Source: a virus
Lineage: Duplodnaviria > Heunggongvirae > Uroviricota > Caudoviricetes
Direction: 5' to 3' (one strand)
Length of the DNA: 64,000 nucleotides
Virus record (IMG/VR): IMGVR_UViG_3300042891_002054
The notes under the pieces were generated by a model, which was not told where the DNA came from, ran no database searches, and was given only the letters and a program-made list of their open reading frames with translations. Made by a program: the position numbers and the translations under genes. Positions 5,509 to 64,000 of the stretch are shown here, in pieces (positions within the stretch are counted from its first letter, which is position 1; the number at the start of each line of letters is the position of its first letter).

Positions 5509-5594
5509 GGGTAAGCGGTGAAGTTGGAGAGTCACACGGGACTGTAAATCCCGCGCCACTGGCTGAGTAGGTTCAAATCCTACCTTACCCACCA
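5509..5594 (+). tRNA. tRNA-Tyr (anticodon GTA), type II, CCA encoded
   Basis: Manual cloverleaf. Acceptor gggtaag/cttaccc, D-stem gtga/tcac, anticodon stem cggga/tcccg with loop ctGTAaa, long variable arm, T-loop ttcaaat, discriminator A plus CCA. Confidence 0.8.
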
Positions 5595-5609
5595 AATTTT
5601 ATTAGTAAT

Positions 5610-5686
5610 GCGGGTGTGGCCCAATAGGCAGAGGCAATAGACTTAAAATCTATCAAGTGACAGTTCGAGTCTGTCCACCCGTACCA
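5610..5686 (+). tRNA. tRNA-Leu (anticodon TAA), CCA encoded
   Basis: Acceptor gcgggtg/cacccgt (G1-U72), anticodon stem ataga/tctat with loop ctTAAaa, extended variable arm, A73 plus CCA. Confidence 0.7.
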
Positions 5687-5700
5687 AATTAGAGAATATT

Positions 5701-6129
5701 ATGAGTTTATTGAGTATAATTAGAACTGATTTAGATGCGGCTAGACGTAATAAAGATGCTAGGTTGTTGACTTTATTGACAACTCTTTATTCTGAAGCAG
5801 CTATGGTGGGTAAAACTAAACGTAATGGTGAATCCACCAACGAAGAAGTTCTTGCTGTAACCAGAAAATTTAAAGTTGGTGTTGAAGAAATTATTAAAAT
5901 TAAAGGTTCTAACGAATTTTTAGATTTCGAAATTTCACTTTATAATAAATACTTGCCTGAACTGTTAACTGATATCCAATTAACAGAAATTATTACTGCT
6001 TTAATTTCTGAATTACCTGAAAAATCCCCTAAATCAATGGGAGTAATTATGGGTAAATTAAAATCGGAATATTTAGGTAGATATGATGGTACAATTGCTA
6101 GTAAATTAGTTAAAGACTTATTAGCATAA
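5701..6129 (+). CDS. GatB/YqeY-domain protein
   Basis: Full-length match to the YqeY/GatB C-terminal domain: 'KYLPELLTD' and 'MGVIMGKLKSEYLGRYDGTIASKLVKDLL' fit the family consensus (eYLPkqls ... mGkvMg.lk..v.GradgklvsklVkekL). The gene is embedded between tRNA genes. Confidence 0.8.
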   Translation: MSLLSIIRTDLDAARRNKDARLLTLLTTLYSEAAMVGKTKRNGESTNEEVLAVTRKFKVGVEEIIKIKGSNEFLDFEISLYNKYLPELLTDIQLTEIITALISELPEKSPKSMGVIMGKLKSEYLGRYDGTIASKLVKDLLA

Positions 6130-6136
6130 AGATTTT

Positions 6137-6212
6137 GCCGTTATAGCACAATTGGTAGTGCACCTGATTTGTAATCAGGGGGTTGGGGGTTCGAGTCCCT
6201 CTGGCGGCACCA
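6137..6212 (+). tRNA. tRNA-Thr (anticodon TGT), CCA encoded
   Basis: Acceptor gccgtta/tggcggc (two G-U pairs), anticodon stem cctga/tcagg with loop ttTGTaa, T-arm ggggg/ttcgagt/ccctc, A73 plus CCA. Confidence 0.7.
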
Positions 6213-6220
6213 AAATTATT

Positions 6221-6299
6221 CGGAATTTAACTCAGTTTGGCCAGAGTGCACCGTTTGGGGCGGTGAAGTCGCAGGTTCGAATCCTGCAATTCCGACCAA
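6221..6299 (+). tRNA. tRNA-Pro (anticodon TGG), CCA encoded
   Basis: Acceptor cggaatt/aattccg, anticodon stem caccg/cggtg with loop ttTGGgg, T-loop ttcgaat, A73 plus CCA. Confidence 0.8.
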
Positions 6300-6391
6300 T
6301 TTAATAGTACAATATAAACAGTGAAAGTTGTACACCACCTGTTAGGTTTCTACCAAAGTGTAGATATATACAAGAGTTCTGATTAATTATT

Positions 6392-6465
6392 GCGGGATAG
6401 TTCAGTAGTAGAATGCTAGGCTCATAACCTAGAGGTCGTTGGTGCAATTCCAACTCTCCGCTTCC
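6392..6465 (+). tRNA. tRNA with CAT anticodon (Met or lysidine-Ile), non-canonical acceptor/D pairing
   Basis: Anticodon stem ctagg/cctag with loop ctCATaa and T-arm gttgg/tgcaatt/ccaac are clear. The acceptor gcgggat vs tctccgc has two mismatches at its base, so the boundaries are approximate and it may be a degenerate copy. Confidence 0.5.
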
Positions 6466-6483
6466 AATTTTAGGTATTTTATT

Positions 6484-6669
6484 ATGAATAGAACTTTAAT
6501 TGATGAAATTCGATTTGTTGATACTGAAATAAAAGAATTAGATGCTAAAATTAACTTTTTAAAAATGTATGATAAAGGTTCATTTAAGCAAATGATCTCT
6601 GATAGAGAATTTTCTAAAAGTGTTCGTTTGAAAAAACGAAATATTTTGGTTAAATTGGTGATATTATGA
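6484..6669 (+). CDS. Hypothetical small protein
   Basis: The listed ORF 6439..6669 overlaps the tRNA 3' end. The internal ATG at 6484 ('MNRTLIDEIRF...') avoids that overlap. Confidence 0.3.
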   Translation: MNRTLIDEIRFVDTEIKELDAKINFLKMYDKGSFKQMISDREFSKSVRLKKRNILVKLVIL

Positions 6670-7295
6670 TTATTGGTTTATTGGGTTTTATCGGTTCTGG
6701 TAAAGGAACTGTAGGTGAAATTTTAGCACATACAGAACATAAATTTGTTCCATTATCTTTTGCTGGTAGTTTAAAAGATAGCGTTTCTGCTATTTTCGGT
6801 TGGGAAAGAGCTTTACTTGAAGGTGATACCCTAGAATCTAGGGAATTTCGTGAAACACTTGATCCGTTTTGGTCAAAGAAATTTAATAGAGATATTACAC
6901 CAAGATATATTTTACAAATTTTTGGAACTGAAGTTTGTAGAAATAACCTTATAGATACTATATGGGTTGATAGTTTAGAACGTAAAATTCTACAATACGA
7001 AAATGTTGTTATTACTGATGTTAGATTTAATAATGAAATAAGATTTCTTAAATCTCTAAACTCATTATTGGTTCAGGTTGATAGAACAGAAACTCAACCT
7101 GATTGGTGGAAATGGCATGAAAGTTGTATGAAAACAATTCCTGCACAGTGGGAAAAATATGCTCTAGAACATAAGATACATAAATCTGAGTATGAGTGGA
7201 TAGGTAATCCTCATATTGATCATGTTGTTGAGAATAATGGATCATTTCGTGATCTTGAATTGAAAATTTTAGATATTGTAGTAAATAATGCTTGA
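6666..7295 (+). CDS. Deoxynucleoside monophosphate kinase-like P-loop kinase (T4 gp1-like)
   Basis: N-terminal P-loop 'GLLGFIGSGKGT' and the 'ITDVRFNNE' motif characteristic of phage dNMP kinase family. Confidence 0.55.
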   Translation: MIIGLLGFIGSGKGTVGEILAHTEHKFVPLSFAGSLKDSVSAIFGWERALLEGDTLESREFRETLDPFWSKKFNRDITPRYILQIFGTEVCRNNLIDTIWVDSLERKILQYENVVITDVRFNNEIRFLKSLNSLLVQVDRTETQPDWWKWHESCMKTIPAQWEKYALEHKIHKSEYEWIGNPHIDHVVENNGSFRDLELKILDIVVNNA

Positions 7296-7320
7296 CTTAC
7301 AACAGAGTCTATAGTATAAT
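7292..7320 (+). promoter_or_regulatory. Sigma70-like early promoter (TTGACT-N17-TATAAT)
   Basis: TTGACT 7292-7297, 17-nt spacer ending 'ctatag', TATAAT 7315-7320. Lies 12 nt upstream of the second tRNA block. Confidence 0.65.
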
Positions 7321-7331
7321 AAATGAATAAA

Positions 7332-7409
7332 TCCCAGTTAGCAATCATGGTGAATGCGCTCGACTGTTAATCGAGAATGAGGTTGGATCGTTACCAACAC
7401 TGGGAGCCA
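7332..7409 (+). tRNA. tRNA-Asn (anticodon GTT), CCA encoded
   Basis: Acceptor tcccagt/actggga, anticodon stem ctcga/tcgag with loop ctGTTaa, T-stem gttgg/ccaac with an atypical T-loop 'atcgtta'. Confidence 0.55.
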
Positions 7410-7414
7410 ATTTT

Positions 7415-7489
7415 ATTCCCTTGGAGAAGTGGTTATCTCATCTCCCTTTCACGGAGACGTCACGGGTTCGAATCCCGTAGGGAATACCA
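7415..7489 (+). tRNA. tRNA-Glu (anticodon TTC), CCA encoded
   Basis: Acceptor attccct/agggaat, anticodon stem tctcc/ggaga with loop ctTTCac, T-arm acggg/ttcgaat/cccgt, A73 plus CCA. Confidence 0.65.
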
Positions 7490-7604
7490 AAATGCATAGT
7501 ATCGCTTTATGCTATGGTGGGTAAGTGCCTCTCGACTCTGATAAGATGCCTCTCAGACCACAACTAGAGTTGTTATTGCAATGACAACATAAGCAAAAAT
7601 TATT
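7490..7604 (+). ncRNA. Structured non-tRNA spacer RNA inside the tRNA array (two hairpins)
   Basis: About 115 nt between tRNA-Glu and the next tRNA that cannot be folded as a cloverleaf. It contains the hairpins gcatag...ctatgc and gttgt(t)...gacaac. Positionally it resembles the small stable RNAs (rnaC/rnaD) co-transcribed with T4 tRNAs. Confidence 0.3.
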
Positions 7605-7681
7605 GCCCATGTATCCCAATCGGTAGAGGAGTTGGTCTTAGAAACCAATTGTTGTAAGTTCGAATCTTACCATGGGTACCA
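7605..7681 (+). tRNA. Type I (short variable arm) tRNA with anticodon TAG (would decode CUA)
   Basis: Acceptor gcccatg/catgggt (G1-U72), D-stem tccc/agga, anticodon stem ttggt/accaa with loop ctTAGaa, 5-nt variable region, T-arm gtaag/ttcgaat/cttac, A73 plus CCA. Confidence 0.55.
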
Positions 7682-7691
7682 AATTGATGTA

Positions 7692-7766
7692 GCCCTTATC
7701 GTTTAATGGATAGGACATGGGATTTCTACTCCCAGAATGGAGGTTCGATTCCTTCTAAGGGTGCCA
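7692..7766 (+). tRNA. tRNA-Arg (anticodon TCT), CCA encoded
   Basis: Acceptor gccctta/taagggt, anticodon stem tggga/tccca with loop ttTCTac, T-loop ttcgatt, G73 plus CCA. Confidence 0.7.
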
Positions 7767-7782
7767 AATAGACCTATTTGGT

Positions 7783-7858
7783 GTGGTCGTGACGGAATGG
7801 TAGACGTCCCTGATTGTGATTCAGGATTTTGTGGGTTCAAGTCCCACCGATCACCCCA
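7783..7858 (+). tRNA. tRNA-His (anticodon GTG), discriminator C, CCA encoded
   Basis: Acceptor gtggtcg/cgatcac (one G-U), anticodon stem cctga/tcagg with loop ttGTGat, T-arm gtggg/ttcaagt/cccac, C73 plus CCA. The nucleotide at -1 is T rather than the usual G-1. Confidence 0.6.
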
Positions 7859-7878
7859 AATAGGTCTATAAAGAATTA

Positions 7879-7970
7879 GGAAGTGTGGCAGAGCATGGCT
7901 TATTGCACTGGTCTTGAAAACCAGCGACTCAGAGATGGGTCCGTGAGTTCGAATCTCACCGCTTCCGCCA
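7879..7970 (+). tRNA. tRNA-Ser (anticodon TGA), type II, CCA encoded
   Basis: Acceptor ggaagtg/cgcttcc, anticodon stem ctggt/accag with loop ctTGAaa, long variable arm, T-arm gtgag/ttcgaat/ctcac, G73 plus CCA. Confidence 0.8.
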
Positions 7971-7977
7971 AATTAAT

Positions 7978-8051
7978 TGGGTTATAGTGTAATGGTAACA
8001 CAACAGATTTTGATTCTGTCGTTCGTGGTTCGAGCCCACGTAACCCTGCCA
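7978..8051 (+). tRNA. tRNA-Gln (anticodon TTG), G73, CCA encoded
   Basis: Anticodon stem acaga/tctgt with loop ttTTGat, T-arm cgtgg/ttcgagc/ccacg. The acceptor register is ambiguous (either a U1:U72 mismatch or a shifted stem), so the ends are +/-2 nt. Confidence 0.55.
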
Positions 8052-8059
8052 GACATTTT

Positions 8060-8147
8060 GGAGAGTTGCCAGAACGGTTAATGGAGCGGTTTGCTAAACC
8101 GTCATCGAGAAATCGATGTATTGGTTCGAGTCCAATACTCTCCGCCA
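8060..8147 (+). tRNA. tRNA-Ser (anticodon GCT), type II, CCA encoded
   Basis: Acceptor ggagagt/actctcc, anticodon stem gcggt/accgt with loop ttGCTaa, long variable arm, T-arm ttgg/ttcgagt/ccaa, G73 plus CCA. Confidence 0.75.
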
Positions 8148-8175
8148 AGATTTAAATATATTTCTAATTGTTATT

Positions 8176-8250
8176 GCGAGTATGGTGTTAATGGTAGCAT
8201 TACAGTCTTCCAAACTGAAGGTAGGGGTTCGAATCCCCTTACTCGCTCCA
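8176..8250 (+). tRNA. tRNA-Gly (anticodon TCC), CCA encoded
   Basis: Acceptor gcgagta/tactcgc, anticodon stem (a)cagt/actg(a) with loop ctTCCaa, T-arm aggggttcgaatcccct, U73 plus CCA. Confidence 0.7.
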
Positions 8251-8256
8251 AATGCA

Positions 8257-8332
8257 GGGTCTTTAGTTAAAAGGTTTAGAACGTCCGACTCATAATCGGT
8301 TGATCTGGGTTCGAGTCCCAGGAGACCCACCA
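8257..8332 (+). tRNA. tRNA with CAT anticodon (likely lysidine-Ile or Met; second CAT tRNA in array)
   Basis: Acceptor gggtctt/gagaccc, anticodon stem (t)ccga/tcgg(t) with loop ctCATaa, T-arm ctggg/ttcgagt/cccag, A73 plus CCA. Confidence 0.65.
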
Positions 8333-21946: not shown

Positions 21947-22656
21947 TGATTATTAATATTCAACAAAAAGATTTTGGTGGAAGAATTCGAAGCGGTGATA
22001 TTTTAGGGGTTTGTAATTTACTAGAACATATAAGGATTATTCTGAATAATCCTTATATTAAAATTTATCTCCCTGATGAATCTATTGAAGATAGTTCTTC
22101 AGTAAAGAAATTTAGAGAATTTTTAAAGGAACATACTGATTATTTTTCTGATATTGCTGGTGATCAATATTTTCAATTCGAAAAATTTAATGTCTGGGAT
22201 TATAGATCAATTTCCGGCGATCTAGTCCAAGTTGATAATACAAAATATAAGAAAGAAGATAAAATTTGTATTTTTCCATTATTTGATGCACAATATAATA
22301 TTTATAGGAATTGGAGCATTGATTTAATGAAAACAATTATTCAATATTATCAACAAAATTTTAAAGGACGTATTATTGTTTGTACTCACGAAGATCAAAA
22401 AGATTTTATTGAAAGAAATTTCCTTGGATTAGAATATTCGTATGATTATGATGAAAATATACAACATTTGATTACGTGTAAATATTTTGCTGGTGGTGAT
22501 ACTGGAACGAGTCATTTAGCTGGATCATTAATTAATAGACCTAAGAATTTATTTTTCTATTCAGCTCAAGAAATTTTTCACACATTTCCTTTGAATTTTA
22601 AAGAGAATGAGATGGTAATGTATAGCGCATTTGGGTGTAAAATAAATGTTAGATAA
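21943..22656 (+). CDS. GT9-like (heptosyltransferase family) glycosyltransferase, short
   Basis: C-terminal 'GGDTGTSHLAGSLINRPKNLFF' resembles the GT9 donor-binding motif (nDsGpmHlAaA.g.P.v.lFG). Confidence 0.45.
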   Translation: MMIINIQQKDFGGRIRSGDILGVCNLLEHIRIILNNPYIKIYLPDESIEDSSSVKKFREFLKEHTDYFSDIAGDQYFQFEKFNVWDYRSISGDLVQVDNTKYKKEDKICIFPLFDAQYNIYRNWSIDLMKTIIQYYQQNFKGRIIVCTHEDQKDFIERNFLGLEYSYDYDENIQHLITCKYFAGGDTGTSHLAGSLINRPKNLFFYSAQEIFHTFPLNFKENEMVMYSAFGCKINVR

Positions 22657-39485: not shown

Positions 39486-39514
39486 CTTTACAAAAAACCA
39501 CTTCTATAGTATAA
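39486..39514 (+). promoter_or_regulatory. Sigma70-like promoter (TTTACA-N17-TATAAT)
   Basis: TTTACA 39486-39491, 17-nt spacer ending 'ttctatag', TATAAT 39509-39514. Confidence 0.5.
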
Positions 39515-39543
39515 TAAGCCTATACTAGAATTATAGGCTTTTT
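39515..39543 (+). terminator. Rho-independent terminator
   Basis: Hairpin aagcctata-ctagaat-tataggctt followed by TTTTTT. Confidence 0.65.
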
Positions 39544-39544
39544 T

Positions 39545-40546
39545 ATGTCAATTTGGATTGATCGAAAATATCTTTTAATGTTGTCCCCTAAGTTGCAACT
39601 GTTCAAGCAAAAGAACACCAACTTGTATACATTTCGTTGTCCGTATTGCGGAGACTCGCAAAAAATCCGTTCTAAAACTAGAGGGTTCGTTTATTCTAAA
39701 AATAATCAATACTTTTTCACTTGTTTTAATTGCGACAAAGGTACAACATTAAAATCATTAATTCAATTTCTAGACCCGTATCTAGAGAAAGAATACATAC
39801 TTGAAAATTACAAAGAAAATGCTTCTTTCACAGAACGCAAAGTGATAGAAAAACCTTCTATACCAAAATTTGAAACCGTTGAACCTAAATTAGCTTTACC
39901 AACTATCGAATCATTACCCGATGATCATATTGCTAAAAAATATATTTTGAATAGAAAAATTCCTGGATTCAGTTATTCTCAATTATATTATGCTGAAGAT
40001 TTCAAACAATTTGTTGAGAGTGTTTCTGATAAACACTTAGATAAAACTGGTCCTAGAATTATTATTCCATTTTTCTCGAAATCTGGAGAGTTAATTGCTT
40101 TTCAGGGTAGAGCATTAGATGCTTATTCTATGCGATATATAACTGTAAAACTTAATAGAGATCATGAAAAAATTTTTGGTTTAGATAGAATTGATATTAC
40201 CAAACCAATTTATGTTGTAGAAGGTCCTTTTGACAGTCTATTTCTCCCCAATGCAATTGCTACAGCGGATTCTAATTTAGCAGCTGCTGGAAATATTTTC
40301 TCAAAAGATAAATTGATATTAGTTCCTGATTGTGAACCGAGAAATAAAAATATTGTTGAAAACATTAAAAAATTTATAAAAAATGGATTCAATGTTTGTT
40401 TGTTACCAGAGACTTTTGGTGCAAAAGATATTAATGATGCTATAAAAAATGGCTTGACGGAACAGGAATTGTTAGGTATAATAACTAAGCATACCTATTC
40501 TGGGTTGATGGCTGAGATTGAATTTTTAAACTGGAAAAAGGTTTGA
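39545..40546 (+). CDS. 61: DNA primase gp61
   Basis: N-terminal zinc ribbon 'CPYCGDS...CFNC' and a TOPRIM-like core. 333 aa, the size of T4 gp61. Confidence 0.8.
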   Translation: MSIWIDRKYLLMLSPKLQLFKQKNTNLYTFRCPYCGDSQKIRSKTRGFVYSKNNQYFFTCFNCDKGTTLKSLIQFLDPYLEKEYILENYKENASFTERKVIEKPSIPKFETVEPKLALPTIESLPDDHIAKKYILNRKIPGFSYSQLYYAEDFKQFVESVSDKHLDKTGPRIIIPFFSKSGELIAFQGRALDAYSMRYITVKLNRDHEKIFGLDRIDITKPIYVVEGPFDSLFLPNAIATADSNLAAAGNIFSKDKLILVPDCEPRNKNIVENIKKFIKNGFNVCLLPETFGAKDINDAIKNGLTEQELLGIITKHTYSGLMAEIEFLNWKKV

Positions 40547-48109: not shown

Positions 48110-48511
48110 ATGTGGATTTATAATGATATTGAATTAATTGAAGTTCCTGATAATGCAATTGGATTTGTATATATTATTACAAATAAATTAAATGGTAAAA
48201 AATATATTGGGAAAAAATTATTTCATTCATCTAAATTTATCCAAAGAAATAAAAAAAGAAAACGTGTTAAGATTGAGTCTGATTGGCAAAAATATTATGG
48301 TTCTAATGAAACATTAAAATCTCTGGTTCAAGAACATGGTACAGAATCTTTTACCAGAGAAATTCTTCATATATGTTATTCAAAATCTCAGGCTTCATAT
48401 CTTGAAGCAAAAGAACAATTTTCAAGGGATGTAATCCTTTCTGATCAATATTATAATGATTGGATTTCTGTTAAAGTTACTAGAAAACATCTACAGAAAT
48501 TCCAATTATAA
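48110..48511 (+). CDS. GIY-YIG nuclease-domain protein (truncated seg-like homing endonuclease)
   Basis: 'IGFVYIITNKLNGKKYIGKK' GIY-YIG motif. At 133 aa there is no DNA-binding domain. Confidence 0.6.
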   Translation: MWIYNDIELIEVPDNAIGFVYIITNKLNGKKYIGKKLFHSSKFIQRNKKRKRVKIESDWQKYYGSNETLKSLVQEHGTESFTREILHICYSKSQASYLEAKEQFSRDVILSDQYYNDWISVKVTRKHLQKFQL

Positions 48512-48514
48512 CCC

Positions 48515-48543
48515 TTTACTAATTTATAATGTTATAGTATAAT
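48515..48543 (+). promoter_or_regulatory. Sigma70-like promoter (TTTACT-N17-TATAAT)
   Basis: TTTACT 48515-48520, spacer ending 'gttatag', TATAAT 48538-48543. Confidence 0.45.
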
Positions 48544-48564: not shown

Positions 48565-49260
48565 ATGTGTGCAGTGATTGGAGCAGTTTTAAATAATCCA
48601 AACATAACAGACTTTGACTTATTGTTGAAGGTTTTTATCGAATCAAAAATAAGAGGATTACATGCAACTGGTCTTTCTTATATCAAAAACAATAGAGTAA
48701 TAACTGAAAAGTTACCAATTCCTGCGGATCAATTCCCTTTTGATTTTCAAGAATATGTTAATGAGGATGGGAATTTGTATTTAGTTGGTCATTGTCGGTA
48801 TTCAACTTCTGATCTAGAATTTAATCAACCTATTTCTAATGATAATTTCTCTGTTGTTCATAATGGAGTAATTACTCAAGAACTTCCTGAACACTGGAAA
48901 GAATTGTATGGTTATGATTGTACTACAAGAAATGATACTGAATTATTACTTCATACACTAGAAGATAATAAATCTTCTCTAGAAGTTTGGCAAAATTCTT
49001 CATTGGCTGTTTGTGAACTCTATAAAGATAAAACTCTGAGATTTTATCGTAATGGCAAGCGTCCGCTATATTCAGCACAATTAAGTAATGGCTGGTTAGT
49101 AACATCAACTGAAAATATACCAAATCGAGCTGGAGTCAATGCGAGCAGCTCGATAATTGATGTTAACACATACTACTGTGTTAATGAATTTAAACTTCTT
49201 AAGCAAGCTTCTGGAGTGAATTCTCTAGATTTGCAGCAGGTAGATTATGCAAAAATATGA
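48565..49260 (+). CDS. Class II (Ntn) glutamine amidotransferase domain protein
   Basis: N-terminal nucleophile 'MCAVIG', 'GHCRYSTS' (GHxRYxTxG), 'HNGVITQ' (HNGeIxN) and 'RNDTELL'. Stand-alone 231-aa glutaminase domain. Confidence 0.7.
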   Translation: MCAVIGAVLNNPNITDFDLLLKVFIESKIRGLHATGLSYIKNNRVITEKLPIPADQFPFDFQEYVNEDGNLYLVGHCRYSTSDLEFNQPISNDNFSVVHNGVITQELPEHWKELYGYDCTTRNDTELLLHTLEDNKSSLEVWQNSSLAVCELYKDKTLRFYRNGKRPLYSAQLSNGWLVTSTENIPNRAGVNASSSIIDVNTYYCVNEFKLLKQASGVNSLDLQQVDYAKI

Positions 49261-50125
49261 TTCAAAAAATTTTACATGGGGTATGGAAATTGAATGGGGC
49301 GATGTTCATCGAGCGTTAGAAATCCCTACTCATCTTGGTTCCTGGGAACATGCTGAAACTGATATTATTAATTTAACAGAACCTTATAAAAACGTTTGTT
49401 GTGATCCTCTAGGTCTTGAGCCTCCTTTTGGCGGTGAGATCAATACTCGCCCAACAAAAACTTGGCAAGAACAGGTTGAACGTTATTTTGACTTAGAACA
49501 ATTTTTTATTGATAACGGTAATCAACCAACTGTTTGTACAACATCTCATACTCATATTCATTGTTTTGTTCCTGGGTTAAAAGATGATATTGATGCATTA
49601 AAACGATTAACAAAATATATTAAAGAAAATCAACAAGTTGCTATTGATCGAGTATATGGATTTTATGAACCAGCTAATATGAAGTTGGCTAAAGGTGCTA
49701 AAATGTATATGAAATTTGATGGTGGCCGCCCAATGCCGGATTATATGTGTAATAACATTATTAATTTAACAACTGATTTTGATCATTTTGTCAAATTACA
49801 TGCTGCCGGTAAAGATGGCGTTTCAATGGGTCGCCCGTTTCGTTATGCCATCAACATGTATTCAATGAAACATATTGGTACTGTTGAGTTTAGGCTCTTT
49901 AGATCAACGATGAACCGAGTTCAAATTGAATCTTGTTTTAGGTTTGTTAATGATTTTATGGATGCTGCATTAAACGATGGTCCGGATGTTCTAGAATTAA
50001 TTATGGAAAATAATTATGAATTTCCTCCAATGATTTGGGATTTAAATCAATTTTTAGGTTGGATCGATACAAAATATGACAAAGAACGTGGAAAAAAAGC
50101 TCGTGAATACCTTGAAGTTGAATAA
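49247..50125 (+). CDS. GCS2/amidoligase-like carboxylate-amine ligase (glutamine-synthetase fold)
   Basis: N-terminal 'FTWGMEIEWGDV' matches the YbdK/GCS2 'FTlGvElE' ATP-grasp-like start, with 'GGEINTRP' downstream. Confidence 0.5.
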   Translation: MQKYDSKNFTWGMEIEWGDVHRALEIPTHLGSWEHAETDIINLTEPYKNVCCDPLGLEPPFGGEINTRPTKTWQEQVERYFDLEQFFIDNGNQPTVCTTSHTHIHCFVPGLKDDIDALKRLTKYIKENQQVAIDRVYGFYEPANMKLAKGAKMYMKFDGGRPMPDYMCNNIINLTTDFDHFVKLHAAGKDGVSMGRPFRYAINMYSMKHIGTVEFRLFRSTMNRVQIESCFRFVNDFMDAALNDGPDVLELIMENNYEFPPMIWDLNQFLGWIDTKYDKERGKKAREYLEVE

Positions 50126-50663
50126 ATGCTCTAGGGATCAATTTATTTCAGCAATATCAACTGATAAAGGTGATAATTTTGCTAGAACTTTTGTTGCTAA
50201 AGCTGATATGCAAGAGCAATGGGATTATTGTATTGGATTATTTGATGGCTCTGAATTGTGTGGAGCAATTATAACAACAATTTCAAAAAGAACTCCACCT
50301 GTTGCTAATCTTCAATTACTGCATACCTTTGTTAAACACAGAGGTAAAGGTGTTGCTAAAATCTTATGCGAGGATTCATTAAAATCCGTTAGAGCAAATG
50401 GTGCAAAATATTTTCGAGTTTCTTCTGAAATCTCAGCAATTGCTTTTTATGAGAAGATTGGATTCAAATTTTGGGGTAAACAGAAAAGTGGGTGTCAGTT
50501 AAGCATCTTTAAAATCGTTGATGATACTTTTGTTGGTGGTGATTATGATTATGCAGACTCTGTAATCTATAATGCAGTCAATAAAAGAGGTAAAGGTGGA
50601 TGTGTTGAAGTCTTTGATTTAAAAAATTTTAAAAAAGTGCTTGACCTAGAGCAATTTTTATAG
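50076..50663 (+). CDS. GNAT family N-acetyltransferase (start uncertain; alternative ATG at 50208)
   Basis: 'HRGKGVAKILCEDSL' (motif A, R/Q-x-x-G-x-G/A) and 'AFYEKIGFKF'. The N-terminal 50 nt overlaps the upstream gene in another frame. Confidence 0.6.
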   Translation: MTKNVEKKLVNTLKLNKCSRDQFISAISTDKGDNFARTFVAKADMQEQWDYCIGLFDGSELCGAIITTISKRTPPVANLQLLHTFVKHRGKGVAKILCEDSLKSVRANGAKYFRVSSEISAIAFYEKIGFKFWGKQKSGCQLSIFKIVDDTFVGGDYDYADSVIYNAVNKRGKGGCVEVFDLKNFKKVLDLEQFL

Positions 50664-50669
50664 TAAAAT
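50641..50669 (+). promoter_or_regulatory. Sigma70-like promoter (TTGACC-N17-TAAAAT) with 'aaaaaagtgc' upstream element
   Basis: Same upstream element as the promoters at 5371 and 5460. Located inside the 3' end of the GNAT gene, 35 nt before the ATG at 50704. Confidence 0.5.
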
Positions 50670-50703
50670 AAGTTATCTTTAACAAAAACTTGAAAATTAT
50701 ATT

Positions 50704-52029
50704 ATGAAAACTGAAGATATTGCTGATCTGAGAACTATTTTATATCTACACACCAATAAGAATACTGGTAGAGTTTATCTTGGAGTTCATAGAACAGATG
50801 AAGATGATGATGGTTATATTACTTCATCAACATGCCCTTATTTTAAGCAAGATTGGACCCTTGGTTTGTTTAAAAAGCGCGAAAAATTGTTTGAAGGTAG
50901 TTATCGAGAAGCAATTAATTTAGAACATCAATTATTAGCAAAATATGATGCTGTAAATAATCCTAATTTTTATAATAAATCTAATGGTGGCGGGGCATTA
51001 GTTGATAAAAATTATATTGTTGATGAAAAAGTCTTTCAAGAAGCATGTGAATGGATTGAAGGTAAAAAAACAGAAACTGTTGTCGAGCTTCCTGTTTCTG
51101 GTCTATATAGACCAGATCACATGGAAAAATTGTACACCAATATAAAATTTGGTATGTATGAAACAGTTGAATATTCTGTAGAAATTTTATATACACTTGA
51201 TAAAAATCAAGTTAGAATGAATCTTTTAGATGAAAAACATGTAGAAGAATTAGTTGACTATTTTAAATACCCTGCTGAAGCAAGAAAAAATTTAACTCCA
51301 ATAATTGTTTCAATAGATAAAAATAAATTAAAAATTATTATTGATGGTAATCATCGAATTAATGCAGCATATAGAGCTGGTTGGTCAACTATTCCAGTAA
51401 TCCTTTTAGATGATAGTGAATTTTTTAATGATGTGAGAAATTATACACAGCTTGGTTTATTGTTAAATGATAAACCTAATATTACTTTGGGTAATAATTT
51501 GGATGATTTAGATAGACAAATTTATATTATTTCTAAAGAATTAGATTATTTAGAGATTGATTCTGATGAATTCATCAGTATACTTAAATCTAGATTTGGT
51601 GGAAAAGGAACAGGTCGTAAAGGTGCTATCTGGAAAGATAGTTCTATTACAAAACGATGCAAATCAATTGCTGCAAAAAATGCAGAATTAGCTCTACAAC
51701 AAGGAAAAAATTTTATTTCTTATTCTAAAACTAAATTGGATAATTATAAACGTGCTTATAAATTTAATTTTCCTAAAGTTGCAGTAATTACTCAAGGGAT
51801 TGATTCAATTTGTAATGCTGGTTTTGGTGGTATCACATCAATGATGAGCGAAGAAAATCGTTCTGAAGGTGTAATTATCGTTCATTACGGTAGCAAATAT
51901 TCCAATTGGGAAGATAGAAATTATATGATTGATAAATTTAATAAACAAGTTGAAAAAATTTTAGCTCCAGGGTTATCTGTTAAATTAGTTTTCCTGGATG
52001 CATTTAAAGAAGGATTTGAACATTGGTAG
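50704..52029 (+). CDS. GIY-YIG nuclease domain fused to ParB/sulfiredoxin-like domain protein
   Basis: N-terminal 'ILYLHTNKNTGRVYLGVHRT...E...N' (GIY-YIG) and a middle 'IIVSIDKNKLKIIIDGNHRINAAYRAGWSTIPVILL' (ParB N-domain GxxRxxA motif). 441 aa. Confidence 0.55.
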   Translation: MKTEDIADLRTILYLHTNKNTGRVYLGVHRTDEDDDGYITSSTCPYFKQDWTLGLFKKREKLFEGSYREAINLEHQLLAKYDAVNNPNFYNKSNGGGALVDKNYIVDEKVFQEACEWIEGKKTETVVELPVSGLYRPDHMEKLYTNIKFGMYETVEYSVEILYTLDKNQVRMNLLDEKHVEELVDYFKYPAEARKNLTPIIVSIDKNKLKIIIDGNHRINAAYRAGWSTIPVILLDDSEFFNDVRNYTQLGLLLNDKPNITLGNNLDDLDRQIYIISKELDYLEIDSDEFISILKSRFGGKGTGRKGAIWKDSSITKRCKSIAAKNAELALQQGKNFISYSKTKLDNYKRAYKFNFPKVAVITQGIDSICNAGFGGITSMMSEENRSEGVIIVHYGSKYSNWEDRNYMIDKFNKQVEKILAPGLSVKLVFLDAFKEGFEHW

Positions 52030-53042
52030 ACTACAGACTAAAAGAAAATCGTAGAGAAGCATTTATCCGCTGGTATGCATGGTCACTAAAATACAAAGAC
52101 TGCGATCCAGCGGTATGGGCAACTAATTACCTGAACCAAAGATACCAACACAACGATGAACAACGTCTTTGGTTCTGTTGGCTCTATGGTAATACCTATT
52201 ACCTGCCAACTGCTTGGGTTCTAATGAATGAGTTTCCAGATTTTGAATTAGCAACAGTTTCTAGAATAGAGCAGTGGAATAGTAAAAATTATAAACGGTT
52301 AAGATATCAAACAGATACAAAATGGAACAAAGGTCATCTCCCAGCAATGTTTGAGTCCTATCAAAAGTTTATTGGTAATGGTACTCAACGTGAACGATTA
52401 GAATCATTTTATGGGAATACACCTGAGCAATCTTTTAACAACCTCTGGGATGGAATCAAATCCAATTTGCATAAGTTTGGTCGCTATTCTACTTGGTTCT
52501 ATCTACAACACCTGCGCCATACTGGGCAAATTGATATCGAACCTGATAACCTTATGCTTAATGATTATAGCGGCTCCCGTTCTCACAGGAATGGGTTATT
52601 ACTTGCCCTGGGTCGAGATGATGAAGTTGATACACCTTTAACTGCTGATCAATATAAATCTCTAGAATTAGAAGCTCGTGATATTCTAAATGAAATCCAA
52701 AATCGTTTTCCTGACTTAAATGCGGACAATTTCCAATTAGAGACAGTACTGTGTAGTTTCAAGAAGATATTCCGAGTGAAGCATGGCAGATATTTAAGAT
52801 ATTACCTAGACCGTCAGGCAGAAGAGATACAGCAATTAGAACAAGACCAATGGCTAGGAATAGACTGGCAAGTGCTCTGGGATTCTAGAACAGAAACTCT
52901 AATCCCAGAATTAAATCTGAAAACTGGTATAGATAAATCTCTATTTGACTCATTCCTAATAACAGGTAATATCAAATCTCTTAATATGATGTTCGATAAT
53001 CCTGAAATAAAATTAAATAATAATCTACTAGAATTTATTTAA
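52023..53042 (+). CDS. Hypothetical protein (Trp/Tyr-rich), last gene of the amidoligase module
   Basis: 339-aa ORF overlapping the stop of the upstream gene. I see no confident motif. Confidence 0.4.
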   Translation: MVDYRLKENRREAFIRWYAWSLKYKDCDPAVWATNYLNQRYQHNDEQRLWFCWLYGNTYYLPTAWVLMNEFPDFELATVSRIEQWNSKNYKRLRYQTDTKWNKGHLPAMFESYQKFIGNGTQRERLESFYGNTPEQSFNNLWDGIKSNLHKFGRYSTWFYLQHLRHTGQIDIEPDNLMLNDYSGSRSHRNGLLLALGRDDEVDTPLTADQYKSLELEARDILNEIQNRFPDLNADNFQLETVLCSFKKIFRVKHGRYLRYYLDRQAEEIQQLEQDQWLGIDWQVLWDSRTETLIPELNLKTGIDKSLFDSFLITGNIKSLNMMFDNPEIKLNNNLLEFI

Positions 53043-53044
53043 AA

Positions 53045-53088
53045 TAAAGCTTTACTTTATCTGATACTCATAGTATAATAAAGTAAAG
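53045..53088 (+). promoter_or_regulatory. Promoter (TTTACT-N17-TATAAT) embedded in the loop of a 12-bp perfect inverted repeat
   Basis: The arms agctttacttta / taaagtaaagct flank 'tctgatactcatagtataa'. The -35 lies in the left arm and the -10 (TATAAT 53074-53079) in the loop. Confidence 0.45.
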
Positions 53089-53089
53089 C

Positions 53090-53152
53090 TCGTCTAGTCT
53101 GATCGGAGTCTAGTCGGAGTCTAGTCTGGAGTCTAGTCTGGAGTCTGGTCAG
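53090..53152. repeat. Tandem ~12-nt repeats (ggagtctagtct-like, about 5 copies)
   Basis: Reads cgtctagtctg atcggagtctagtc ggagtctagtct ggagtctagtct ggagtctggtc. Confidence 0.7.
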
Positions 53153-53211
53153 GACTAAATCCAAATAATAAAAATTAATAAGTAGTCTAAGTCAAAATCG
53201 ACCACTGAGCG

Positions 53212-53291
53212 AATCTATCCGATCTTTTCCAAATACCGCTGATCTTCTACGAATCCATCCGATCTTTTCCAAATACCGCTGATCTTTTCCA
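53212..53291. repeat. Two direct 38-40-nt repeats (gaatc(t/c)atccgatcttttccaaataccgctgatctt)
   Basis: Adjacent copies at 53212-53250 and 53251-53291 with 2-3 mismatches. Confidence 0.75.
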
Positions 53292-53330
53292 TATCACAAA
53301 CTTTAGTGTTCCGCGACTAAATCCGCCAGA

Positions 53331-53819
53331 TTATTGTTGATTGGTTTTATATTTAAAGGTTCTTGATAATTTTTCCCCATTACTTTTTGTTACCTGATTA
53401 GTTAATTCAAATTCTAGTATAGTATTAGCAAAGTTATTAATAATAATATCTGTTACAGTAGAATACAATATAGTTGGATTTGTTAGAGATATAGCTTCAG
53501 ATATTGTCCATTCAGAGGCAGTAATAGTTTGGTCAGGTAACAGCCATAGATCCCAGGGAACTGCTGTAAATTCAACTGTACCAGAGGTAGTGGTATCTTG
53601 CCCCCAAGTGGGTTCAGTTTCCGCTGTTCTACCTGCTGTGGTGCATTGGTAGTAATACCCATTATCAACACTAGGTTTACAGATATCGCCCAGACGATAG
53701 ATAAAGTCTGGAGTAAATGTTATTGGTGCCCAGTAGACAGTTACTTTGGTAACATCATCAGGATCTATATACCCAGCGATTTTTAGCGGACCTTTTTGAG
53801 TTGCTTGATAGATTTGCAT
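53331..53819 (-). CDS. Hypothetical structural protein (minus strand)
   Basis: 162-aa ORF directly downstream of, and co-oriented with, the minus-strand repeat protein. Confidence 0.45.
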   Translation of the reverse strand: MQIYQATQKGPLKIAGYIDPDDVTKVTVYWAPITFTPDFIYRLGDICKPSVDNGYYYQCTTAGRTAETEPTWGQDTTTSGTVEFTAVPWDLWLLPDQTITASEWTISEAISLTNPTILYSTVTDIIINNFANTILEFELTNQVTKSNGEKLSRTFKYKTNQQ

Positions 53820-55499
53820 TTATTTACCTTTAATTAGAAATTCTTGTTGTATATATTTAATATTAATAGAATTTTCAGGATTTTGTATTAGTACACGATT
53901 ATCCGGAGTTTTTACAATAACCTCTAGATCAACTGTAGGAGAGATTACTTGTTTATTGGTATTTGTTATTAATATTGTTTGTGGATCAGATTTAATTAGA
54001 TATTCATTAGGAATATGTTTAATTAAGATCAGATAATTTTTACTTAACCTAATAACTATTAATTTTGCATCAGCAGATACTATTGCGCCAGCTAGAGCAT
54101 TTAATTGTATTTTTGTAGTTAGAGCAGCTGCTGTTGTTGTGTTGGACTTACACGATAGAGAAACTAGCTGGATACTATTTGTTAGCGCAGCTTTATTGGT
54201 TACAACACAAGTATCGATAGATGCTAGTTGTATCTGGGTAGTTAACCCAGCTGATGCAGTGGTTCTTGTACTTGTTGCAGCAGCTAATTGAATAGAATTA
54301 ATTAATTGTGCAGAGTTTGTTACAACACAATAGTCACGAGATTCTAGTTGTATCTGGGTTGTTAAACCAGCTGAGCTGGAACTTCTAGAAGAAACAGTTG
54401 TAGCTAATTGGATAGAATTAATTAATTGTGCAGAGTTTGATACAAAACAAGTATCGATAGATGCTAATTGTATCTTGGTGGTTAAACCAGCTGAGCTGGA
54501 ACTTCTAGAAGAAACAGTTGCAGCTAGTTTAATAGAATTAATTAATTGTGCAGAGTTTGTTACAACACAAGTATCGATAGATGCTAATTGTATCTTGGTG
54601 ATTAGACCAGCATTATTAACTATTGTTCTAGCAGTAATCCCACTAGCTAATTTAATGTTATTTGTTAGTGCAGCTCTAGCAGTACAGTTAGTTTTTACTG
54701 TGGAGAAAACTGCAGGATCAGCAATAAATGCTGAAACTGAAGAAATTGACTGAACCTCAGCATCAAGTTGTATTTGAGTGTTTAATGTACCAGATGTAGA
54801 AACCGATGAAATACTAGGTACTGCTATTAATTGGATACTTGTATCTAGATCAGCCCTATTGGTTACAACACAATAGTCACGAGATTCTAGCTGTATAGCA
54901 GTTGTTAAATCAGCAGATGCAACAGTTCTTGTACTTGCTGCAGCAGCTAATTGGATAGAATTAATTAATTGTGCAGAGTTTGTTACAACACAAGCATCGA
55001 TAGATTCTAATTGTATAGCAGTTGTTAACGAAGATCTTTGAGAAACTACACTAGAACTAGAGGTAGCTAAATTTACACTTGTCGTTAAGTTGGCAGATGT
55101 TCTTGCTAGTGCTGCAATTGAAGTATTTAATTTAACTTGGGTTGCTAAATCTGCTCCGGTTCTTGCTAGAGCAGCAGCACTAGCCGCAAGATTAATCTGT
55201 GTATTAAGTGTGAGTGTTCCTAGTGTAACAACACTTCTAGCAACAGCAGTAAATCGTATAGCAGTTGTTAGATTAACAGATGTTCTAACCGTTGAGATTG
55301 CAACAGCTGCAAATTGTATAGCAGTTGTTAGGTTACTAGAAGATTTTGCAGTACAAGTAATCGAAGAATTTAACGGTTTTGCTACCAATAAATTGACCGA
55401 TACTGTGCATGAGCATGTAACTGTCGCAGCAAGCTCAGCTGCTGGACCTATCCCTGAGGATGATATTGGATTAGAACTTAAAGGAAAAAACCCTAGCAT
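53820..55499 (-). CDS. Repeat-containing fibre-like structural protein (40-aa / 120-nt tandem repeats)
   Basis: Internal repeats of the type '...LTTxIQLASIDTCVVTNSAQLINSIQLAA...'. The DNA shows 120-nt periodicity between about 54180 and 54980. Ser/Thr/Ala-rich. Confidence 0.6.
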   Translation of the reverse strand: MLGFFPLSSNPISSSGIGPAAELAATVTCSCTVSVNLLVAKPLNSSITCTAKSSSNLTTAIQFAAVAISTVRTSVNLTTAIRFTAVARSVVTLGTLTLNTQINLAASAAALARTGADLATQVKLNTSIAALARTSANLTTSVNLATSSSSVVSQRSSLTTAIQLESIDACVVTNSAQLINSIQLAAAASTRTVASADLTTAIQLESRDYCVVTNRADLDTSIQLIAVPSISSVSTSGTLNTQIQLDAEVQSISSVSAFIADPAVFSTVKTNCTARAALTNNIKLASGITARTIVNNAGLITKIQLASIDTCVVTNSAQLINSIKLAATVSSRSSSSAGLTTKIQLASIDTCFVSNSAQLINSIQLATTVSSRSSSSAGLTTQIQLESRDYCVVTNSAQLINSIQLAAATSTRTTASAGLTTQIQLASIDTCVVTNKAALTNSIQLVSLSCKSNTTTAAALTTKIQLNALAGAIVSADAKLIVIRLSKNYLILIKHIPNEYLIKSDPQTILITNTNKQVISPTVDLEVIVKTPDNRVLIQNPENSINIKYIQQEFLIKGK

Positions 55500-61632: not shown

Positions 61633-64000
61633 TGGCTATATCTCAGATTAATTATTCAAATACATTTTCACATTGGTTGATTTCAACTAATCAATTGATC
61701 GATAATGTGAATACATTAAATTCAGGCAATTTTTTTAAGAATAATGGTACATTATTTTTAAATTCTCCTGGAACTGCTCTGTATGTTGCGAATACTTCTG
61801 CTTTTAGTGGGAATGTAACATTTAGCGGTAGCGGTTCAGTTTTCGTTAAAATTCAAGTTCCTACTTTAGCAACAAATACTGTTACTATAACTGATCCACT
61901 AAGTTTGGTTGCTTCTGGTAATGTTGCAACTAATGGTTGGATAATTTCTTCTGGGTCAATTAGGTCTAACACTGCGCTATTAACTAATGCAATCTCTATT
62001 TCTAACGGAACTGTTGTTGCTAACAATTTAATAAAATCTAATGAGTTGATTCAAGGTAATAATCTTGTAATTTCTGAATCTATCAGATCAAATAATTATG
62101 CTTGGGCATCAAATACCTTTTCTGAATTTTTAACTGTTAATAATTCAGTAATATTTAATACAGCTAATGCATATGTCAAATACAGCAGTAATGGTCAATT
62201 ATACAAAATAGTATCTACTGAAGATATACTAAACGCTAACACGTTCTTACAAGATTATACCAATAAAGCCAATTCGTTCAACACAACAAGAACTGATAAC
62301 GCTAACACGTTCTTGCAAGATTATACAAATAAAGCCAATTCATTCAACACAACAAGAACCGATAACGCCAACACGTTCTTACAAGATTACACCAATAAAG
62401 CCAACACCTATAATACAACAAGAACTGATAACGCTAACACGTTCTTACAGGATTATACAAATAAAGCCAATTCATTTAATGTAACAAGAACCGATAACGC
62501 TAACACGTTCTTACAGGGTTATACAAATAATGCTAACACGTTCTTGCAAGGTTATGCAGATAGAGCGAACACGTTCAATACAACAAGAACTAATAATGCT
62601 AATACGTTCTTGCAAGGTTATGCAGATAGAGCGAACACGTTCAATACAACAATAACTAATAATGCTAACACGTTCTTGCAAGGTTATGCAGATAGAGCTA
62701 ATACGTTCAACACAACAAGAACCGATAATGCAAATACGTTCTTACAGGGTTATGCAGATAGAGCTAATAATTTTGCTAATCTAGCTCTAATTGCAGCTAA
62801 CACTTTCCTTCAAGCAAATGATGGTATAACTTTATCTCGTGCTAGAGCTTACACCGATTTAGCGAATAATTTTGCTAATCTAGCTCTAATTGGAGCTAAT
62901 ACTTTCCTTCAAGCAAATGATGGTATAACTTTATCTCGCGCTAGAGCTTACACCGATTTAGCCAACACCTATAATACAACAAGAACTAATAATGCAAATA
63001 CTTTCCTTCAAGCAAATGATGGAATCACATTAACCGCTGCTAGATCTTATGCTGATGGTAAATTTTTACCAATTTTTACATCAAATAATGTGGTAAGATT
63101 GCCTAATACTACATTTAACATTTTAGCAGCGCAAGATTTGGTTACTGGTAATCTTAGTGTAACTGGAACATTTATTTCCTATGGTTCTTCTGCAACTGAT
63201 AGTGCATCATATATATTCCAATCAAATACTGGTTCAACCATTTCACCTAGCACAGATATTATTGTTAATCGTGGTATTGGTGAACCAAATACAATTTTAA
63301 ATATCGGTAATACTGCTGTATTAAGATGGTATAATGCTGGTAAAATTTGGCAGATTAAAGATGTAGAAACAAGTACATTCTATCAAGTTATTTCACAAAA
63401 AGAATTAGATATAGCGAATACTTTCCTACAAGCGAATGATGGGATTACATTAACTGCAGCTAGAGCATATACAGATTTAGCGAACAGTTTTAATACATCA
63501 AGAACCAATGCAGCTAATACTTTCCTACAAGCGAATGATGGAATCACATTAACTGCAGCTAGAGCATATACAGATTTAGCGAACAGTTTTAATACATCAA
63601 GAACCAATGCAGCGAATACTTTCCTACAAGCGAATGATGGGATTACATTAACTGCAGCTAGAGCATATACAGATTTAGCGAACAGTTTTAATACATCAAG
63701 AACCAATGCAGCTAATACTTTCCTACAAGCGAATGATGGAATCACATTAACTGCAGCTAGAGCATATACAGATTTAGCGAACAGTTTTAATACATCAAGA
63801 ACCAATGCAGCTAATACTTTCCTACAAGCGAATGATGGAATCACATTAACCGCTGCTAGAAATTATACTGATCTAGCGAACAGTTTTAATACATCAAGAA
63901 CCAATGCAGCTAATACTTTCCTACAAGCGAATGATGGAATCACATTAACCGCTGCTAGAAATTATACTGATCTAGCGAACAGTTTTAATACATCAAGAAC
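61633..64000 (+). CDS. Tail-fibre protein with 22-aa and 33-aa tandem repeats, 3'-partial (GTG start)
   Basis: Open frame from GTG 61633 to the window end, not in the ORF track because it has no stop. It carries about eight 66-nt repeats 'NANTFLQDYTNKANSFNTTRTD' (62228-62760) and six or more 99-nt repeats 'ANTFLQANDGITLTAARAYTDLANSFNTSRTNA' (63410-64000). Confidence 0.65.
62228..62760 (+). repeat. 66-nt in-frame tandem repeat array (about 8 copies) within the fibre gene
   Basis: Unit aacgctaacacgttcttacaagattataccaataaagccaattcgttcaacacaacaagaactgat, with later copies drifting to GYADRANTFNTT. Confidence 0.8.
63410..64000 (+). repeat. 99-nt in-frame tandem repeat array (6 or more copies, continues past window end)
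   Basis: Period 99 nt: 'cgaacagttttaatacatcaagaaccaatgcagc' recurs at 63481, 63580, 63679, 63778, 63877 and 63976. Confidence 0.85.

Follow-up and report, generated by a model that had tools for sequence, protein, structure and literature searches.

T4-like phages are expected to carry early promoters read by the host polymerase, and Rho-dependent sites have long been established in T4 early transcription units, with the escape of T4-type delayed-early RNA from Rho being an open question (PMC2988021). The RNA that Rho prefers is 70-80 nt long, rich in C, poor in G, unstructured and untranslated (PMC6407284), and T4-type phages gain and lose open reading frames (ORFs) at PeSL (promoter-early stem-loop) units, which combine an early promoter with a stem-loop (PMC2839356; PMC4122927). 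Here, we analyze a non-coding spacer at positions 53043-53330 of a 64,000-nt stretch of DNA (hereafter, the window) from the Caudoviricetes record IMGVR_UViG_3300042891_002054, where the end of a 53-kb plus-strand block of early/middle genes meets the end of minus-strand late fiber genes. We tentatively favor the reading that this spacer represents a PeSL-like boundary between early and late transcription, coupled to a short untranslated early RNA with a tail that resembles a Rho-loading (rut) site. This reading is close to the fallback of the first-pass annotation of this DNA, which had named a transcription-termination or antisense-regulation hub as an alternative to the candidate replication origin that it put forward.

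According to this model, host RNA polymerase would start at around position 53086 early in infection and make an RNA of ~200-250 nt without ribosome cover, the C-rich array tail of which (53210-53301) would provide the Rho-loading site. Rho would then release early transcription over or just past the array, ahead of or barely within the 3' end of the late genes that converge on it. Late fiber transcripts arriving from the opposite side would stop at a hairpin and U-tract (53090-53040), and this minus-strand stop would shield the DNA-modification genes from antisense read-through. Finally, the promoter-hairpin unit might also act like the PeSL cassettes, promoter/terminator modules where phages acquire and shed gene cassettes by recombination. 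Of the elements of this model, the promoter family, the synteny, the pattern of conservation, the base composition, the lack of RNA structure and the bracketing of the cassette are observed, and promoter activity, Rho dependence, terminator activity and a role for the core are inferred.

Candidate early promoter and minus-strand terminator

The sequence TTTACT-17-TATAAT at 53051-53079 (feature coordinates are collected in Table 1) matches the sigma-70-type consensus at 10/12 positions and is the top match within 52500-53900. Scanning the window for TTKAC-N15-18-TATAAT returned seven sites, all of them on the plus strand, and an alignment of five of the seven revealed CTT.AC...TAGTATAATA to be invariant, giving a family consensus of GCTTKAC-N17-TAGTATAATA. 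That is, judged by this alignment, TAGTATAATA is a phage-specific consensus and the 53051 promoter is one of six or seven plus-strand promoters in the window that make up a host-type early family of this phage. At the equivalent position, L001/L002, L218, L228, L238, L239 and L241/L242 have orthologous promoters (L-numbers denote related loci, drawn from IMG/VR and metagenome assemblies). These comparative criteria support a real promoter, and we infer a transcription start at ~53086; the predicted transcript would run antisense towards the minus-strand structural (fiber) genes, which is the direction that the first-pass annotation had proposed. Promoters of the same family were also observed at 7292, inside a cluster of 15 tRNA genes (5509-8332), and at 39487-39545, just before a primase-like gene (39545), the latter with a terminator-like hairpin and T-run (AAGCCTATA...TATAGGCTTTTTTA) within a few bases.

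The promoter lies within a hairpin of a kind that is rare in this genome: perfect inverted repeats of at least 13 bp with a loop of at most 40 nt occur twice in 64 kb, compared to 0.24 expected based on shuffles (the other one, at 22028-22058, has 14-bp arms and a 3-nt loop; ATATAAGGATTATT...). As minus-strand RNA, the hairpin folds at -22.2 kcal/mol (z -4.4) and is immediately followed by UUUAUUUU; as plus-strand RNA, it folds at -17.9 kcal/mol (z -2.9), with no U-tract 3' of it. Further, an RNA started at ~53086 would be unable to form the hairpin because the arms are made of the -35 region and the first transcribed bases, and on the plus strand only RNA that reads through from the ADDT gene, to the left of the spacer, could fold into the hairpin. 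The hairpin together with UUUAUUUU reads best as a putative minus-strand intrinsic terminator for late fiber transcripts. L238 and L239, where ADDT is also upstream and the flanking protein is 64-76% identical, retain 9-10 bp of the inverted repeat, which is absent from L001, L218 and L241, where a SegE-like gene is upstream.

A conserved core followed by arrays of conserved composition

Related loci were retrieved with a short conserved piece of the spacer (AATTAnTAAGTAGTCTAAG), and further loci with the 162-aa protein of the converging gene. At least ten distinct lineages of uncultured T4-like freshwater phages share the layout of the window, with 162-aa proteins 50-86% identical to the window's. 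In these lineages, we observed the early promoter to be followed by ~100 nt of variable sequence (or a 51-aa ORF), the core, the arrays, a CCGC...CCGC pair and the stop of the converging gene, with GC hairpins after the CCGC pair in some lineages. The TAAGTAGTCTWAG core is invariant across the lineages that share this layout and, overall, the core is nearly invariant even though the flanking protein is only 50-86% identical, i.e., the core is more conserved than the neighboring protein gene. We found no consensus RNA structure of the core across lineages, no significant fold of the plus-strand RNA (z -0.6) and no pairing of the left with the right array, and Rfam returned nothing at gathering score, with permissive searches giving only chance-level matches; for these reasons, a structured-RNA reading was rejected. 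The lack of a plus-strand fold and of a core consensus structure fits an unstructured RNA, as the favored reading proposes, and the core itself would probably be a sequence-specific binding or processing site. Among described families, we found none that matches the combination of core and arrays.

The arrays show the opposite pattern of conservation. Their units are unrelated between lineages (GATCTTTTCCAAATACCGCT in the window, CCAGCATTATCCAATCATTT in L001, GAAATTCTCC in L238, TCAATAGATT/TCAAGAATCT in L241, and AGACATCTTT, CAGTATCCAT and TCGAAGATTC in L084-L091), being completely different even where the flanking gene is 76-86% identical, and their copy number differs among near-identical genomes (L084/L088/L228, L001/L002 and L241/L242). 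We found no motif common to all arrays. What is shared is the period, which is 10 nt or a multiple thereof in 12/13 loci, and the single G of each unit, which stands at a fixed phase. In addition, all GTCT motifs are left of the core and all AGAC motifs right of it in 10/10 loci examined, an inverted arrangement around the core, with the window's own right-hand array lacking AGAC. The 12-nt array of the window has expanded, in this lineage only, from a sequence of which relatives have one copy (CTCTAGTCTGCTGGTCA in L238 and CGGAGTCTGTCT in L087-L091), and the 12-mer motif was found nowhere else in the window. The 20-mer repeat is likewise found nowhere else in the window, and its chance expectation is 0.

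Base composition past the core is also conserved. Positions 53212-53301 hold 28 C and 7 G, which makes them the most C-over-G-rich 90-nt plus-strand stretch in the 64 kb, and the best 78-nt segment of the spacer has a C/G ratio of 4.2 and a minimum free energy (MFE) of -2.5 kcal/mol; only 0.04% of 78-nt segments in the 64 kb reach a C/G of at least 4. The best 78-nt segment has a C/G of 3.6-10.5 in 12/13 related loci, and 11 of these 12 have an MFE of 0 to -5 kcal/mol, the exception being L242 at -10.8. GC skew past the core on the plus strand is -0.2 to -0.5 in every locus, compared to +0.18 for the genome. Since the best segments of L086 and L091 lie partly beyond the repeats, in non-repetitive sequence, it is the composition, rather than the repeat unit, that is kept and that seems to be held by selection. 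The tail resembles a rut site in its length of at least 70-80 nt of C-rich, G-poor RNA, its weak fold and the lack of an ORF over the region.

A DNA-modification cassette between two promoter copies

The 53051 promoter and a second copy at 48515 bracket a 4.5-kb DNA-modification cassette, the five genes of which look like a thymidine hypermodification pathway (Table 1). This cassette is absent from L001, L002, L218, L228 and L241, in which the SegE-like gene leads to a single promoter and then to the core element. A stem-loop of 12-13 bp (TTGGATTTCTGT...ACAGAAATTCCAA, at ~48458-48507) is located in the final codons of the SegE-like gene; the 48515 promoter follows directly, and the two form a second composite of promoter plus stem-loop. 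That is, the early promoter consensus recurs, a stem-loop is found in the same intergenic motif, and the copies flank a cassette that is present or absent among relatives, which are the features by which PeSL units are recognized. Two further loci, L229 (3778-6422) and L230 (3121-5765), carry an identical 162-aa gene and spacer, with ADDT called as 231 aa compared to 339 aa and with a 613-aa protein following ADDT instead of the 441-aa ParB-like protein; because this upstream arrangement differs, the modification module varies among near-identical phages.

Features of the spacer and of the surrounding genome

The structures described by the first-pass annotation were recovered with a few corrections. 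The ~290 nt of non-coding DNA between convergent modules were found as 288 nt, and the promoter with a TTTACT -35 stands and is conserved in relatives, but its -10 lacks a TGn and thus does not qualify as extended. The perfect inverted repeat enclosing the promoter is present and extends over 13 rather than 12 bp. An array of ~12-nt units is also present, with 4.2 copies and one degenerate copy instead of five tandem copies, and the two adjacent 38-40-nt direct repeats correspond to 1.9 copies of a 40-mer, to which we add a 20-nt sub-period. Comparison with related phages, which had been suggested as a check on the repeats, gave a divided answer: arrays occur at the same place in every lineage, whereas their unit sequences are not conserved.

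Table 1. Coordinates of the spacer, its parts and the neighboring genes within the window.
Feature	Position	Strand	Description
Non-coding spacer	53043..53330		288 nt, between the stops of two convergent genes
ORF with Pfam ADDT / aGPT-Pplase3 match (amino acid:DNA transferase)	52023..53042	+	Left neighbor of the spacer
Candidate U-tract UUUAUUUU on minus-strand RNA	53040..53047	-	Directly past the hairpin; candidate intrinsic terminator of late fiber transcripts
Hairpin around the promoter	53048..53090	.	13-bp perfect inverted repeat (53048-53060 / 53078-53090), 17-nt loop, inner 5-bp stem
Predicted sigma-70-type early promoter	53049..53083	+	-35 TTTACT (53051-53056), 17-nt spacer, -10 TATAAT (53074-53079)
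12-nt array GGAGTCTAGTCT	53092..53154	+	4.2 copies at 53105-53154, 92% matches, plus a degenerate copy from 53092; G-rich plus strand
Conserved core AAATCCAAAT...AAAATTAATAAGTAGTCTAAGTCAAAATCGACCAC	53157..53205	+	TAAGTAGTCTAAG stretch (53179-53191) nearly unchanged in relatives
20/40-nt array	53210..53301	+	40-mer x1.9 at 53210-53286, 97% matches; GATCTTTTCCAAATACCGCT, 20-nt period, x3.5 at 53221-53291
Paired TCCGC...TCCGC motif	53310..53327	+	Just before the stop of the converging gene
162-aa gene, weak Gp77 fiber-tail adaptor match	53331..53819	-	Converging right neighbor, syntenic anchor of the element
Second copy of the predicted early promoter	48515..48543	+	Just after the SegE-like GIY-YIG gene (48110..48511)
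Five-gene module	48565-53042		GATase, amidoligase-like ORF (no Pfam match), GNAT, 441-aa protein with weak ParB_N match, ADDT/aGPT-Pplase

The spacer is real sequence that is stable in its lineage, not an assembly artefact, because seven independent assemblies (JGI, ENA and Logan samples) agree on it; the 288 nt are identical across them, except that one of the seven carries two substitutions and one insertion, all within the 12-mer array. The ORFs within 53043-53330 are of 25-35 codons and on the minus strand only, with no plus-strand ORF of at least 20 codons in this interval. A coding reading was rejected based on these short minus-strand ORFs and on the related arrays, which carry a TAG every 10 nt. 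Two other functional readings of the arrays were also discarded. A sponge for CsrA-type binding through GGA on the minus strand is contradicted by the L086 and L218 arrays, which lack GGA on inspection, and a DnaA-box cluster by the background frequency of such boxes: the array contains TTTTCCAAA-like sites, but in this AT-rich genome the relaxed box is not enriched (236 found, 269 expected).

PHROG matches identify replication proteins of the T4 type in the window (gp43 polymerase, gp41 helicase, gp61 primase and a gp46-like protein), and the phage is accordingly classified from its sequence as T4-like. Its G+C content is ~30% (69% AT). Megablast and blastn searches of GenBank phages gave no DNA match to the region, and gp43 is <48% identical to cyanomyovirus gp43, i.e., there is no cultured close relative. 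All other strong tandem repeats of the window have a period that is a multiple of three and lie inside fiber genes; the fiber-like genes at 54199-54611 and 62230-64000 carry long tandem repeats with periods of 120 nt and 33/66/99 nt. A 153-aa minus-strand ORF at 63383..63844, on the opposite strand of the 99-nt repeat, looks artefactual. Several IMG/VR contigs (L084, L085, L087, L088 and L228) stop within a few hundred bases of the element, suggesting that assembly is interrupted by the arrays or at the variable boundary of the cassette.

A few additional features were observed among the relatives. The 51-aa ORF between promoter and core encodes a hydrophobic, membrane-like protein in one clade (L218, L228 and L084-L091), and is missing from the window, L001, L238 and L241; L239 has an 80-aa ORF after the arrays instead. 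The CCGC-N8-18-CCGC pair also occurs in L238, L239 and L241, and in a weaker form in L001. The GC stem-loop TCGCYCNNNNNNNRGGCGA is present three times between the arrays and the converging gene, ~200-350 nt past the core, in L084-L091 and L218, and is found in neither the window nor L001. All 16 departures from Watson-Crick pairing in its variable stem positions are transition-type wobbles (16/16), with a weak strand preference (ten wobble pairs favor the plus and six the minus strand, counting three variable stem pairs).

Other candidate relatives were set aside. Scanning metagenomes with a 14-base core pattern gave, among the matches listed, chance matches only, the pattern being too short, and L226 was rejected as a chance match to the core. 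The ADDT gene (~70% identity) led to loci that were uninformative, their downstream context being different, and homologues of the 162-aa protein at 40-57% identity belong to other kinds of phages without the layout. In L236 (743-2505), the gene after a 161-aa homologue (71% identical) has RNA polymerase beta-prime domains, and this locus represents either a chimeric assembly or a very different genomic context.

Alternative explanations

Several observations weigh against the boundary reading or go beyond it. A dedicated, strong promoter directed into non-coding DNA is kept in the lineages without an ORF (the window, L238, L241 and L001), which a terminator role leaves unexplained. The hairpin stem is AT-rich (three G-C pairs), its loop is long, and it was not called by a consensus terminator scan. 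The C-spacing rule of RhoTermPredict (a C every 11-13 nt), in our re-implementation of the two main criteria of that program, is satisfied in the window and L218, that is, in only 2/9 loci tested. An RNA tail alone does not require GTCT and AGAC to be inverted around the core, and the 10-nt period, which matches the helical repeat of DNA, could just as well mean a DNA-level protein-binding array.

It is possible that the arrays are mostly neutral minisatellites, i.e., functionless slippage products in a dispensable spacer, in which case the promoter, core and hairpin would be functional or relict. We regard this as unlikely, given that arrays stand at the same place in every lineage examined, that their period and base composition are kept despite the change in sequence, and that the window's version is invariant across seven samples. 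Neutrality would, however, account for a spacer at the edge of a hyperplastic region, for the complete turnover of unit sequence between lineages, for copy numbers that differ among near-identical genomes, for a 12-mer array expanded from sequence that is single-copy in relatives and for the many related contigs that break near the region. Alternatively, the element may encode a trans-acting early non-coding RNA, with the core as its recognition or seed sequence and the C-rich repeat tail titrating a host or phage single-strand RNA-binding factor (which could be Rho itself, an RNA chaperone or a defense ribonuclease). The dedicated consensus promoter kept in ORF-less lineages, the conservation of the core in excess of the neighboring protein gene, the unstructured and multivalent character of the predicted RNA and the quick expansion and contraction of the arrays would all be expected of such an RNA, and phage pseudo-ToxI decoys likewise change quickly in array length. 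Yet the 64-kb window contains no complementary target, the arrays have no motif in common, Rfam offers no family, the same sequence is the 3' untranslated region of the 51-aa ORF in several relatives, and no known decoy fold would fit into a unit of 10 nt, all of which makes this explanation quite unlikely. Its more specific variant, in which the early promoter is conserved to make this RNA and the invariant-core RNA with its multivalent C-rich tail would act early as a decoy for host Rho or another single-strand RNA-binding factor, such that phage early transcripts are helped to read through, appears very unlikely.

Two further explanations place the function of the arrays at the DNA level, and both draw on the period of one or two helical turns (10/20 nt), the inverted GTCT/AGAC arrangement around the core and a core that is conserved as plain sequence without RNA structure. 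One of these is a protein-binding array other than an origin, i.e., a centromere-like or nucleoprotein site, a landing pad for a regulator or helically phased bent DNA. The 10-nt or multiple period in 12/13 loci and the single G at a fixed phase are consistent with it, and type II partition centromeres consist of 10-11 or 20-bp tandem repeats; nonetheless, we consider it highly improbable, since the element is not accompanied in all lineages by a gene for a candidate binding protein, the window's right-hand array has no AGAC, and the C-over-G asymmetry of the plus strand, which reaches into non-repetitive sequence, is unexpected for double-stranded sites. To our knowledge, T4-like lytic phages have no partition system, which also counts against it. 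The other is the replication origin proposed by the first-pass annotation, with either an early transcript that primes or activates replication through an R-loop of the T4 oriE/oriF type, or arrays that act as initiator-bound iterons next to an AT-rich core as the unwinding region. A dedicated early promoter into non-coding DNA that is conserved in ORF-less lineages would fit this explanation. However, we found no positive support for it and deem it quite unlikely. No initiator-like gene is adjacent (the neighbors being ADDT and a fiber-adaptor-like gene), the genes are convergent, so that outgoing forks would meet transcription head-on, and cumulative GC skew runs past 53 kb without an inflection. 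The core does not stand out in AT content: it is 82.5% AT over 40 nt, and 6% of all 40-nt segments are equally or more AT-rich in this 69%-AT genome. RNA over the arrays would be pyrimidine/C-rich, and such RNA forms weak RNA:DNA hybrids. The iteron-like character that had been assigned to the repeats does not hold either, since iterons should track a conserved initiator and the units here are unrelated at 76-86% flanking-gene identity and vary in copy number; as an iteron origin, the sequence fails the defining tests. The analogy to T4 oriF and oriG is not borne out, as the promoter has -35 and -10 elements of the early type and is not a MotA-type middle promoter like those of oriF and oriG; an AGCTTTA sequence that resembles the box is 19 nt away from the -10, too great a distance for a MotA box centered at -30. 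In MotA-dependent promoters, the box has its center at -30 and stands in place of the -35 element (PMC2988021). The better analogue among the T4 origins would be oriE, which depends on an early promoter and has evenly spaced 12-nt repeats, and a switch of the transcribed strand is found at the site here as at T4 oriE, oriF and oriG (PMC3016281). The oriE repeats are part of the repeated coding sequence of gene 5, however. A role for them in replication was never established (PMC3016281).

If the favored reading of a PeSL-like transcription boundary with a rut-like RNA tail is correct, i.e., if the repeat tail is a Rho-loading site, it would represent an unusually clean natural rut built of tandem units. 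If, on the other hand, either the RNA or the DNA site proves to have an independent role, this would matter for the control of T4-type early transcription or for the start of replication; with low probability, the core with its inverted, helically phased arrays might be a new kind of cis-acting DNA site (an origin or a chromosome-organizing site) in T4-like phages. In either case, a conserved non-coding element is defined here in an abundant, uncultured, freshwater T4-like lineage: an early promoter is joined to an invariant core (~13-20 nt) and to 10/20-nt arrays that evolve fast, with their base composition conserved. The arrays are likely assembly breakpoints and possible strain markers in metagenomes, and the DNA-hypermodification cassette between two promoter copies would extend the shuffling of PeSL cassettes to a distant T4-like branch.

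Comparison with described systems

Among described origins, T4 oriE resembles the spacer in having an early-type promoter antisense to late structural genes and a cluster of 12-nt direct repeats near a strand switch. The T4 repeats, however, lie inside gene 5 and have a 24-nt period, whereas those of the spacer are non-coding, and the T4 early transcript encodes RepEA/RepEB, whereas no plus-strand ORF of at least 20 codons exists in 53043-53330. Moreover, the 12-mer array here is lineage-specific (single-copy or absent in relatives), and there is no sequence similarity between the two loci. Iteron origins, which consist of 17-22-bp direct repeats, and type II centromeres resemble the spacer in that their direct repeats all point the same way, recur every one or two helical turns and adjoin a promoter and an AT-rich stretch. 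They differ from it in that the spacer has no adjacent initiator or ParR-like gene, its units are not conserved in close relatives, and its strand-asymmetric composition extends past the repeats.

Rho-dependent terminators are closer in several respects. As in lambda tR1 and in the rut sites modeled by RhoTermPredict, the candidate site lies downstream of an early promoter and consists of 80-90 nt that are rich in C, poor in G, unstructured and untranslated, and, as in Rho-dependent terminators more generally, it is intergenic, stands at the end of a transcription unit and adjoins conserved non-rut sequence. In contrast to lambda tR1, which has a bipartite rut (rutA-boxB-rutB), and to other Rho-dependent terminators, the rut-like zone here is made of perfect tandem repeats with a 10/20-nt period. 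The C-spacing rule is followed in a minority of relatives, and the Rho dependence proposed here is a prediction from sequence.

PeSL units provide the remaining comparison. The stem-loop of the spacer encloses the promoter, whereas it adjoins the promoter in PeSLs, and PeSLs have no conserved core or tandem arrays downstream. The stem is AT-rich here compared to GGGG...CCCC in PeSLs (PMC2839356), and the U-tract is on the opposite strand. In both cases, nonetheless, a strong promoter of the sigma-70 early type with an AT-rich upstream stretch is combined with a stable stem-loop in intergenic DNA, and several copies of one consensus bracket a cassette that only some related genomes carry, with the element at the edge of a variable region. 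By this analogy, the promoter/hairpin/cassette part of the locus is a variant of the PeSL.

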